A stretch of DNA of 64,000 bases from Escherichia coli (GTDB taxonomy: Bacteria; Pseudomonadota; Gammaproteobacteria; Enterobacterales; Enterobacteriaceae): the NCBI RefSeq assembly GCF_003334385.1, contig NZ_QOWN01000003.1; one strand, given 5' to 3'. The position numbers were made by a program, and so were the translations under genes. This document shows, piece by piece, positions 37,004 through 40,463 of the stretch. The notes under the pieces were generated by a model. That model worked only from the letters and a program-made list of their open reading frames with translations, searched no databases and was not told where the DNA came from. How positions within the stretch are numbered: the stretch's first letter is position 1; every line of letters starts with the position of its first letter.

Positions 37004-37609
37004 TTACTTTAAGCCTTCCGCTGACAGCGCGTCTTGTACTTCCGGACGTTCAGCCATACGTTGCATAAATGCTGCAATGTGCTCTAACCCTTCCAGATTC
37101 AGTTTCACCGCGTATGCCCAGCGCAGAACCGTAAACAGATAGGCATCAGCAATTGTAAATCTTTGCCCGCAGATCCAGTGCTCATCCTTCAGTGCCTCGT
37201 TCACATATTGCAGCTTCTTCTCCAGCTGCGCGCGAACTGTCGGTTTGTACTCTTCCGGTGTATCAGGGCGAAACAGAGGTGTGAAACCTTTATGCAGCTC
37301 GGTGGCGATGTAATTCAGCCATTCGATGGTTTTATAGCGGGAAATACTGTTTACCGGTGCCAGCAACTGGCGGTCGGGGACGCTGTCGGCAAGATACTGC
37401 ATAATCGCTACGCCTTCCGTCAGCAAAGTACCGTCATCCAGCAGCAATGCAGGCACCTGCCCCTTAGGGTTAACGGCAAAGTAATCGTCACCGTTTTCGA
37501 GACGTTTTTTCATTAAATCCACACTGACGAGGGTAAAATCCTTTCCGCTCTCACGCAGGGTGATATGGGAAGCGAGAGAGCAGGCACCCGGTTTGTAGAA
37601 CAATTTCAT
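37004..37609 (-). CDS. gstA: glutathione S-transferase
   Basis: 201 aa, [17 protein letters not shown]-terminus. Confidence 0.9.
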
Positions 37610-37670
37610 CGGTAACTCCTTTTGTCTGTGGTTTAAAGTATGGTAGTGCGTTGCTGAACAAAAAAAAAGC

Positions 37671-37701
37671 CGCTAACGAAAAGTTAGCGGCTTGTAAAAG
37701 A
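37671..37701 (-). terminator. intrinsic terminator downstream of dtpA
   Basis: GCCGCTAAC-GAAAA-GTTAGCGGC stem preceded on plus strand by A8 (U8 on the dtpA transcript). Confidence 0.6.
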
Positions 37702-37714
37702 GTTTCCCTGAATT

Positions 37715-39217
37715 TTACGCTACGGCTGCTTTCGCCGCTTTGTCTGCAGCGTCATCCTGCGTCATGCGGTGCAGTTTCGGCGCGGTCAGCAGCATCAGTA
37801 CTGCAATAACGGCAGTAGCGACACCAATCTGCAAGAATACGCGACCATAGACTTCCAGTGACATCAGCGGATCGGTAACGTTATCCGGCACAGCCATCAT
37901 ACCCGCAACATAACCACCAATCAGGTTTGCACCGGCAGTGGTCAGGAACCAGCTACCCATAATGAAGCCCATCAGACGCTGCGGAACGAGTTGAGCAACC
38001 ATTGCCAGACCCAGACCAGAGATCATCAGTTCCCCGATGCTCTGCAGGCCATAGCTTGCGACCAGCCAGCTTACAGACACGATACCAGCGTCAGACGCGA
38101 ATTTCGCACCCAGCGGCAGAATCAGGAACGCACCAGAACACATCACCATGCCGATTGCAAACTTGGTTGGCATCGGCAGGGTATCGCCCATCTTGTTATA
38201 GATAGCGGCCAGAATCGGACTACCGATGATGATCCAGAACGGGTTCAGTGCCTGATACTGCTCAGGTTCTACGGCCAGACCCAGAATGGAGTGCTCAACG
38301 TTACGAATCGCAAAGAAGTTCAGTGACGTTGGCATCTGGCTGTACAGCACGAAGAAGATAATGGCTTCGAGCATCAGGATGAAGGCAACGATCATTTTAC
38401 GACGCGCAGCACCTTTCATCGCGAAGGCTTCTTTACCGAAGATAACCACGATACCGAAGGCAACAACGCCCAGCGCCATACGCGCAACTTCCTGATTGTG
38501 CAGCAGCCAGGTGGCGATAGCGATCAGTGCCACAACACCAATAATGGTCAGCAGCAGGTTACGGTAGTTGATAGGCTCGAAGTCTGGTTTTGAACCGTAC
38601 TGTTTAACCCAGCGTTGGCAGAAGGCGAAGTTAACGATAGTGATCAGCAGGCCTACAACGCTCAACGCAAACGCAACACTCCAGCCGTATTTCGCGGCCA
38701 GCCACGGCGTAGCAATCATAGAGAAGAAAGAGCCGATGTTGACGGACATGTAGTACATGGTGAATGCACCGTCCAGACGCGGGTCGTTTTTCTCATAGCA
38801 TGTAGAAAGCAGAGAAGACGGGTTAGCTTTAAACAGGCCGTTACCGACCGCAATAGCCGCCATACCCATATAAACGATACCGGCGTCGTGACCAGACCAG
38901 GCAACCAGAGCATAACCAATCGCCAGCACAATAGCGCCGAGCATAATTACGCGTTTAGTACCCAGTACCTTGTCACCTAACCAGCCGCCGATAGCGACCA
39001 GACCATAAACCAGGGCACTAAAGGAAGAGAAAAGGGTGATTGAATCCGCTTCAGACATACCCAGTTGTTTAACCAGGTAAACAGCCATAATTCCTTGTAG
39101 GCCGTAATAACCAAAACGTTCCCATAACTCAATCGAGAAGATGAGATAGAACGCCTTCGGTTGTTTGAAAGCGTTCAAACTGACGCTTTCAGTTGGTTTT
39201 TGGTTTGCAGTGGACAC
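37715..39217 (-). CDS. dtpA: proton-dependent di/tripeptide permease DtpA (POT family)
   Basis: 500 aa polytopic ORF, GTG start; 610-bp upstream regulatory region. Confidence 0.9.
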
Positions 39218-39801
39218 TTTTACCTCTTTTTTTACATCCCATATTAACGGGGGTGCTTTCTCGCGTTATGTATAAAAAACATACGCGCAATTGTTATAGT
39301 GGGAGGGGAAACGGCAGGTAATGTTCACTATCTTGCACTTTCAGACAAGTCCTTTGTAATAATCTGTTACATATAACTGAGGCGGGGAATTCAACCATTC
39401 CGGGAAATGTTATCCAGCGTTAAATTTTTCAAAAAACGTAACGGCAGATTTTTTCACTGCACTGAGAGGGGGGTGATGGCTTAACGGCGATATGTTCTGC
39501 TATTTAGCGTTTTTACTAGTGAGATAGTCCAGTTTCTGAAAAATAGCCAGTGTAATGTTTTGTAGGTCAATATTTGTTGCGTGTGTAAATTTAAATGATT
39601 TTAACCTGATTCTTGCAATGTTTTTACATTGCGACAGCATCGTGATCTTGATCACGAATGAATAGAAAATTTCGCTATTAAAAAAACAATTAACCTGCAT
39701 TTTTGGTTATCCGCAAACGGATTACCTGATGATAACGCTAAGCAATGGCATCATTGACGTTAAAAAGATGTTTTAAAAGAGGATAAAGAAAGGTTATCAA
39801 T

Positions 39802-39829
39802 GGGGTAATCGGTGTTACCCCTTTTCTTC
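39802..39829. terminator. hairpin at nth 3' end
   Basis: GGGGTAA-TCGGTG-TTACCCC with T-run on plus strand overlapping the nth stop codon. Confidence 0.4.
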
Positions 39830-40463
39830 AGATGTCAACTTTCTCTTTGTATTCACAAAGATCTTCAATAATACAAGAGCCACAGCGGGGCTTGCGGGCA
39901 ATGCAGGTATAACGCCCGTGCAGGATCAACCAATGGTGGCAGTCGACTTTAAACTCTGCTGGAACCACTTTCAGTAGCTTTTCTTCTACCTGTTCGACGT
40001 TTTTCCCCGGCGCAAATTGAGTACGATTACAAACGCGGAAAATGTGCGTGTCGACAGCAATAGTCGGCCAGCCGAATGCAGTGTTTAATACGACGTTGGC
40101 TGTTTTACGACCTACGCCGGGCAGGGCTTCAAGCGCAGCACGATCTTCCGGAACCTCGCCATTATGCTGCTCCAGCAAGATACGGCAGGTTTTGATGATA
40201 TTTTCTGCTTTGCTGTTATAAAGCCCAATCGTTTTGATATAGGTTTTCACCCCTTCAACGCCCAGTTCAAGCATCGCTGCAGGCGTATTCGCCACCGGGT
40301 AGAGTTTCGCCGTCGCCTTATTAACACTGACATCGGTCGCCTGAGCGGAAAGCAGTACGGCAATCAGCAATTCAAAAGGCGAACTGAAATTAAGCTCGGT
40401 GGTGGGATGAGGATTGTTCTCACGCAGGCGAGTGAGGATCTCCAGGCGTTTTGCTTTATTCAT
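39828..40463 (-). CDS. nth: endonuclease III
   Basis: 211 aa; C-terminal 4Fe-4S motif CxxxxxxCxxCxxxxxC; last gene of the rsx-nth cluster. Confidence 0.95.
   Translation of the reverse strand: MNKAKRLEILTRLRENNPHPTTELNFSSPFELLIAVLLSAQATDVSVNKATAKLYPVANTPAAMLELGVEGVKTYIKTIGLYNSKAENIIKTCRILLEQHNGEVPEDRAALEALPGVGRKTANVVLNTAFGWPTIAVDTHIFRVCNRTQFAPGKNVEQVEEKLLKVVPAEFKVDCHHWLILHGRYTCIARKPRCGSCIIEDLCEYKEKVDI

Follow-up and report, generated by a model that had tools for sequence, protein, structure and literature searches.

The 610 bp that separate nth from dtpA in Escherichia coli are very likely the cis-regulatory region of dtpA, made up of a single weak sigma-70 promoter, a structured leader and a distal array of protein sites. 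The core of this control, namely the proximal promoter with its OmpR site, is already known. The covarying hairpin of the dtpA leader is undescribed, and the 387 bp of indel-free conservation, which extend to -385 and include both a CRP-type palindrome and an Lrp-like site, look undescribed as well. The accessible literature treats the proximal ~200 bp and makes no mention of the conservation and spacing to -385 or of the leader hairpins, and no nth-dtpA feature is named in the literature that was searched. These undescribed aspects, the distal conservation and the covarying hairpin, are of moderate specialist interest and directly testable.

The window, as we call the whole stretch of 64,000 nucleotides that was analyzed, is the reverse complement of the corresponding E. 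coli K-12 MG1655 sequence (MG1655 genome coordinate = 1751986 - window coordinate). An 810-bp query around the gap was 100% identical to MG1655 and was found in 5,424 of 5,426 complete E. coli genomes at an identity of at least 95%. The gap itself occupies 39218-39827, which is exactly 610 bp (MG1655 1712159-1712768), and lies between two genes:

39828-40463, minus strand: nth, with its stop codon TGA at 39830-39828

37715-39217, minus strand: dtpA (tppB/ydgR), with a GTG start

The product of dtpA is the main proton-driven importer of di- and tripeptides in E. coli and a route of drug uptake. In NC_000913.3, the curated MG1655 record, no feature is annotated in the gap. The initial annotation had described it as the largest non-coding stretch of the window, bounded by the nth 3' hairpin and the dtpA GTG, and as AT-rich. 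The size and the borders are correct: the gap ranks first among the 54 intergenic gaps of the window (the second has 390 bp, the median is 101 bp), the hairpin lies at 39802-39821 and dtpA starts at 39217. Its GC content of 36.9% against 50.8% for the window and a mean of 41.3% among the remaining gaps of 100 bp or more makes it AT-rich, though only slightly beyond usual intergenic DNA. The gap is large, yet no new gene annotation is needed for it.

The tppB/ydgR (dtpA) promoter is said to have been found OmpR-dependent by Goh, Siino and Igo in 2004. We back-calculated the dtpA start site from the offsets in two independent ChIP-exo tables (OmpR and GadX) and obtained 39313-39315. A consensus promoter scan of the gap gave no match and missed the actual dtpA promoter as well; therefore a conservation-aware -35/-10 scan was written and applied to both strands of 64 distinct orthologous regions. 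The only dtpA-direction promoter-like pair that proved to be conserved was TTGTCT-17 bp-AACATT, present in 91% of the 64 species, and this pair fits the back-calculated start site exactly. The elements of the core are as follows:

39313-39348, minus strand: core sigma-70 promoter, with -35 TTGTCT at 39348-39343, a 17-bp spacer, -10 AACATT at 39325-39320 and the start near 39313

39352-39371, minus strand: invariant OmpR-type site TGTAACAGATTATTACAAAG, which abuts the -35 and lies within the published OmpR peak

The OmpR peak was reported by ChIP-exo at NC_000913.2 1710621-1710680, with its center at -46.5 from the start (Seo et al. 2017); after addition of 1976, which converts NC_000913.2 coordinates to the current genome version, it covers window positions 39330-39389. 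As for the class of OmpR-activated sigma-70 promoters, the dtpA promoter has a -35/-10 pair with its start site and, according to the published peak, OmpR occupancy beside the -35. It has also been reported that a promoter fusion from -201 to +15 is strongly reduced in activity in an ompR deletion strain and repressed when the OmpR level is high. Transcription would thus start at one deliberately weak sigma-70 promoter, about 96 nt before the GTG, and OmpR bound directly upstream of the -35 would activate it.

The promoter of dtpA is known to be mutated repeatedly in cells that live on the peptides of dead cells in long-term stationary phase. In an evolution experiment of 1,200 days in stationary phase, three cultures acquired an A->T substitution in the nth/dtpA intergenic region (+503/-108), with which the level of dtpA mRNA rose about 23-fold. 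Both offsets point to the same window position, 39325, which is the first base of the -10, so that AACATT becomes TACATT.

Two minor observations belong to this part of the locus. In one long-term stationary-phase culture most of the clones with the dtpA promoter mutation also carried a V46F change in gstA (37004-37609), which may be hitch-hiking of a neighboring mutation. On the plus strand, an antisense ORF of 12 codons (MFTILHFQTSPL, 39321-39359) begins opposite the -10 region and ends opposite the OmpR site; it is open in all 59 non-Escherichia sequences, has no good SD and is probably a by-product of the invariant promoter DNA.

Downstream of the start site lies the leader, with the following parts:

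39218-39312, minus strand: dtpA 5' leader of about 96 nt, comprising a C/U-rich 5' stretch, hairpins 1 and 2, an A-run and the SD

within 39218-39312, minus strand: the invariant, C/U-rich 5' stretch CCGUUUCCCCUCCCA

39262-39287, minus strand: hairpin 1, in which the sequence varies and the pairing is kept

39238-39251, minus strand: hairpin 2, near-invariant with its loop included

39223-39226, minus strand: the SD, GAGG, with the A-run before it

Both hairpins were predicted in essentially all of 65 distinct leaders from about 65 Enterobacteriaceae species. RNAalifold missed hairpin 1 on MAFFT alignments, and the explicit structure was counted instead. In hairpin 1, both sides are changed in five of the nine pairs and 88% of the cells pair; pooling the two hairpins gives 92%, against 33-43% with the partners slid, and none of 500 shuffles reached 92%. 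With regard to the class of riboswitches and other cis-regulatory leaders, the dtpA leader shows conserved secondary structure with covariation. A U-run follows neither hairpin, so that they are probably no attenuators. The idea of a leader in the initial annotation is partly borne out: the leader is short, about 96 nt, yet it has the two conserved hairpins.

The hairpins and the A-rich stretch next to the SD would be a likely substrate of post-transcriptional control, and dtpA is reported to be repressed post-transcriptionally by GcvB with Hfq. Two particular pairings were tried and rejected. An anti-SD pairing CCUC:GAGG has a mean probability of 0.76, but it is not claimed here because composition-matched shuffled 5' segments do equally well. 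Pairing of GcvB with the leader, with the duplex restricted to R1 (unrestricted duplex prediction was meaningless), placed the best site in the early dtpA coding sequence and did not exceed shuffles.

An out-of-frame upstream ATG (ATGGGATGT..., 39242-39189, minus strand) lies within hairpin 2, and its frame overlaps the dtpA start; it is not present in Salmonella (ACGGGGCGT), and thus a conserved upstream ORF is unlikely. The dtpA coding sequence carries an 11-bp inverted repeat within its first 50 nt (39165-39192). It is terminator-like on the antisense (plus) strand, where TTGGTTTTTG follows, and would form a hairpin of the mRNA just past the start codon; one of its pairs is broken by a synonymous change in Citrobacter.

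How far upstream of the promoter does the functional DNA extend? To answer this question we compared 80 orthologous loci from more than 20 Enterobacteriaceae genera. In all 80 the upstream neighbor of dtpA is nth, and in about 70 the gap measures 570-640 bp. Conservation of gap length alone is weak evidence, because the neighboring dtpA-gstA gap (37610-37714) keeps its length fairly steady too, within about 10% in most species; the near-absence of indels over 387 bp is a stronger signal. The conservation profile, which the initial annotation had proposed as a check, is patchy, yet it reaches far upstream, to -385. Over 480 bp the distance of the anchor blocks to the dtpA start codon varies by 1-3 nt among about 70 species, which represent more than 20 genera. 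In the 387 bp upstream of the start (39314-39700; 71 sequences) the gap fraction is 0.005, at least 90% conservation is reached by 123 of 387 columns, and there are invariant blocks of 10-16 nt; the segment 39560-39610 is poorly conserved. The remaining 127 bp have a gap fraction of 0.27, a mean identity to E. coli of 0.33 and 2 columns with at least 90% conservation. From nth toward the promoter, the main stretches are:

39701-39827 (127 bp): variable nth-proximal spacer, in which alignment between genera fails

39680-39697, minus strand: outermost conserved block, CAGGTTAAT-n2-TTTTTTT, at about -385, where the conserved unit ends upstream

39485-39564, minus strand: conserved blocks ACAAAACATTACAC, TTTTTCAGA, CTATATCACT and AGCAGAACATATCGCC, about -172 to -251

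39405-39427, minus strand: conserved block AAATTTAACGCTGGATAACATTT, about -92 to -114

We place the functional unit between about 39700 and the start codon because conservation stops there and because Kosakonia keeps the unit length of ~480 bp. The DNA on the nth side of about 39700 is variable and holds only the nth 3' hairpin.

These figures also bear on the notion that the distal half is a mere AT-rich spacer, or silenced DNA of the H-NS type, with no sequence-specific function. The GC content is low here (31-37% over 39500-39800), and the nth-ydgR gap is a standard 'neutral' landing pad for chromosomal insertions (Kuhlman & Cox 2010; genomic MPRA libraries of Urtecho et al.). The number of highly conserved columns, the almost complete lack of indels and the invariant blocks nevertheless make such a spacer very improbable, and the truly variable part is confined to the 127 bp that adjoin nth. 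On the contrary, sequence and spacing are both strongly constrained over the distal 300 bp, with a CRP-type palindrome as the clearest candidate site, and the distal conservation is best explained by an array of protein-binding sites, probably a phased one. As to the phasing, the strongest short-range period of the conservation profile is 33.4 bp (a raw peak), and a periodicity of 10-11 bp is only nominally significant (p about 0.025 under a lenient null); the two periods are no more than suggestive.

The most conserved distal element and its neighbor are the following:

39641-39656: CRP-type palindrome CGTGATCAAGATCACG, centered at -335.5 from the start

39663-39677: Lrp-consensus-like site, TAGAAAATTTCGCTA when read on the plus strand, which overlaps the invariant AAATTTCTAT block, at about -357

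In 59 distinct sequences the GTGA and GATCAC cores of the palindrome are essentially invariant, and most genera read TGTGATCnnGATCAC, the idealized CRP site. The palindrome is a near-consensus match to TGTGA-N6-TCACA, the CRP consensus. An FNR site was ruled out because the flanking bases are G...C, as in CRP-type sites, instead of T...A; readings as a matS or SlmA site were ruled out on spacing. A match to the locus in a CRP ChIP-exo supplement turned out to belong to a list of transcription-unit ends and to be no CRP peak. Inside the palindrome lie two GATC (Dam) sites, which begin at 39644 and 39650; the gap has no others. The Lrp-like site sits 7-15 bp from the palindrome. For YAGHAWATTWTDCTR, the Lrp SELEX consensus, the site at 39663-39677 is the sole match with at most one mismatch in 64 kb, where 0.63 matches are expected per whole window and about 0.006 per 610 bp; the conserved region has no further match to this consensus. 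From these matches we infer CRP as the candidate protein at the palindrome and Lrp at 39663-39677.

Just downstream of the palindrome (39612-39640, minus strand) most genera have GATAAC-n5-ATGTTA and then GTT 11 bp past GTTA. This motif resembles a T-N11-A site of the LysR type (YdcI?) or a direct repeat of the ArcA/OmpR type, and it is degenerate in E. coli.

The position of the palindrome is not that of a CRP-dependent promoter, for which -41.5, -61.5, -71.5 or similar would be usual, and its distance from these canonical activating positions speaks to some extent against a protein-site array too. Could CRP serve a second, distal dtpA promoter instead? Its transcripts would begin near 39607 or 39587 with leaders of about 300-400 nt, and the conserved upstream blocks would then be elements of the RNA. 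The near-consensus palindrome, conserved in 59 distinct sequences, would suit it, as would some AT-rich -10-like hexamers seen in the alignment 25-35 bp downstream, but we consider such a promoter improbable. In this interval no -35/-10 pair oriented toward dtpA is conserved, and the scan of 64 species found no conserved promoter at a CRP-suitable distance from the palindrome on either strand. Moreover, 39560-39610 is conserved poorly, conserved RNA structure is absent on both strands, the fusion from -201 to +15 is already active and OmpR-dependent, and the selected up-mutation falls in the proximal -10.

The array of protein sites, our preferred reading, gains from published regulator data. 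A GadX ChIP-exo peak (NC_000913.2 1710534-1710554) lies at -151 from the dtpA start:

39456-39476: GadX ChIP-exo peak from the published table, in converted coordinates

Leu-Lrp and GadX are listed among the repressors of dtpA, and YdcI is a reported binder upstream of it. The multiple regulator sites that the initial annotation had supposed are therefore supported by the OmpR and GadX ChIP-exo peaks, by the reports on Lrp and YdcI and by the invariant blocks out to -385. A simpler layout, with one promoter close to dtpA and nothing else protected, is right as to the promoter, which is single, and wrong as to the rest, as protected and conserved sites lie far upstream. We suggest that the 387 bp upstream of the start are a fixed-geometry protein-site array, and not spacer, RNA or coding sequence, whose members would be the GadX peak at -151, the CRP-type palindrome at -335, the Lrp-like site at about -357 and the further conserved blocks. 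Such an array would probably form a phased or looped nucleoprotein complex that tunes the promoter output to amino-acid supply, carbon source, pH and anaerobiosis. The borders of the gap, the place of the promoter, the published OmpR and GadX occupancy, the conservation with its fixed spacing, the leader hairpins and the lack of any conserved ORF or RNA structure are established; which proteins occupy the distal blocks, as well as the phasing or looping, is inferred.

Another possibility is a hidden gene in the gap, either a small RNA on the plus strand that ends at 39802-39828 or a small protein. The relevant features are:

39802-39821, minus strand: nth 3' hairpin, directly past the nth stop, -10.5 kcal/mol, z -1.5

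39500-39700, minus strand: ORF of 66 aa, present in E. coli

The U-run of the hairpin (TTTTCTTC) is on the plus strand, opposite nth, and the nth strand continues with AUUGAUAAC; the nth strand thus has no U-run, and an intrinsic terminator of nth is not formed here. On the plus strand the same hairpin precedes TTTTCTTC, and the fold of 39696-39830 is slightly more stable than that of shuffled sequences (z -1.8), as an RNA ending there might show. In other genera, however, the hairpins at the nth 3' position are unrelated in sequence and length and the plus-strand U-run is absent, while the variable spacer cannot be aligned between genera. A search of 38900-40100 against Rfam at a permissive threshold returned nothing below E = 0.8 and nothing near the gathering score of a family. 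The consensus scan found no promoter-like site for such an RNA. Conserved RNA structure was not detected on either strand of the 395 bp upstream of the promoter by sliding RNAalifold, which was judged by the structure conservation index only (at most 0.24 per 100-nt window), since its z-scores were meaningless with a control variance close to zero. A small regulatory RNA with its own promoter and terminator, or with conserved sequence, structure or family membership, was accordingly not found. There is no entry for dtpA in the MPRA supplement and none for a dtpA transcript end in the portion of the 3'-end atlas available to us.

The ORF of 66 aa exists in E. coli, but it contains stops in Citrobacter, Salmonella, Klebsiella, Enterobacter and others, and we agree with its earlier description as unconvincing because of these stops. 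No frame in the upstream region is open across the species on either strand, and the antisense 12-codon ORF in the invariant promoter DNA is the sole short ORF whose start and length are conserved; a small protein maintained in relatives is thus not seen. Together with the empty gap in NC_000913.3 and the lack of any named nth-dtpA feature in the literature searched, this makes a separate gene for a small RNA or a small protein highly unlikely. The unannotated small RNA that the initial annotation had offered is not supported: it has no Rfam match, no conserved structure and no second conserved dtpA-direction promoter, and 39701-39827 cannot be aligned between genera.

It is useful to set the cis-regulatory region of dtpA beside known systems. 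The tppB/ydgR OmpR promoter is the same locus, with the OmpR peak centered at -46.5, the weak -10 and the OmpR dependence. The ompF gene has OmpR sites F1-F3 and a distal site F4 at about -360, with looping assisted by IHF. Like ompF, dtpA is controlled by OmpR, is activated at low OmpR and repressed at high OmpR, and has functional DNA several hundred bp upstream; on our reading of the sequence, OmpR-like half-sites containing ACAT recur in dtpA at about -11, -97, -247 and -310. Unlike in ompF, a fusion that lacks the distal region was already repressed at high OmpR, the sole reported OmpR ChIP-exo peak of dtpA is proximal, and its most conserved distal element is of the CRP type and not of the OmpR type. 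The Lrp arrays of ilvIH, gltBDF and dadAX offer a second parallel. As in these, dtpA has Lrp as a listed regulator, one strong consensus match in a conserved block and a long upstream region of fixed geometry, in which the strongest short-range period of the conservation profile, a suggestive one, is about 33 bp; the dtpA region has one consensus-matching site only. Structured leaders such as that of rpoS, or those of dppA and oppA, which are targeted by sRNA, resemble the dtpA leader in its conserved hairpins, its A-rich stretch before the SD and its published GcvB/Hfq control; they differ in that the dtpA leader belongs to no Rfam family and that its anti-SD and GcvB pairings are not above shuffles.

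The pap switch, governed by Dam and Lrp, is resembled insofar as the Lrp-like site of dtpA lies near a palindrome with two GATC, and this is a resemblance only. In contrast to pap, dtpA lacks two separated sets of GATC and Lrp sites and a PapI-like factor, and the literature search gave no support for a switch of this kind at dtpA. It is hardly more than a speculation that the indel-free upstream region acts as a higher-order nucleoprotein switch dependent on geometry, in which CRP (-335) and Lrp (about -357) bring the DNA to the OmpR promoter by looping or wrapping and the Dam sites could make occupancy sensitive to methylation. If this were true, expression of dtpA might be heterogeneous or heritable, and insertions into the nth-ydgR landing pad may disturb dtpA regulation. 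In any case the 'neutral' insertion site used for reporter libraries is not functionally empty.

Some loci depart from the usual gap lengths. In nine loci, among them one of Kosakonia quasisacchari and one of Phytobacter, the nth-dtpA gap reaches about 1,060-1,185 bp. In Kosakonia quasisacchari, the sole one of these inspected, the extra DNA holds an open frame of 160 codons on the opposite strand, apparently encoding a hydrophobic membrane protein; the upstream dtpA blocks A2-A5 are degenerate there, and the length of the ~480-bp dtpA-proximal unit is maintained. Intestinirhabdus alba has a gap of 735 bp, about 125 bp above the usual. The dtpA-gstA gap shows a bimodal distribution of lengths among the 80 loci, mostly 98-117 bp, with 139-166 bp in about 14 species.
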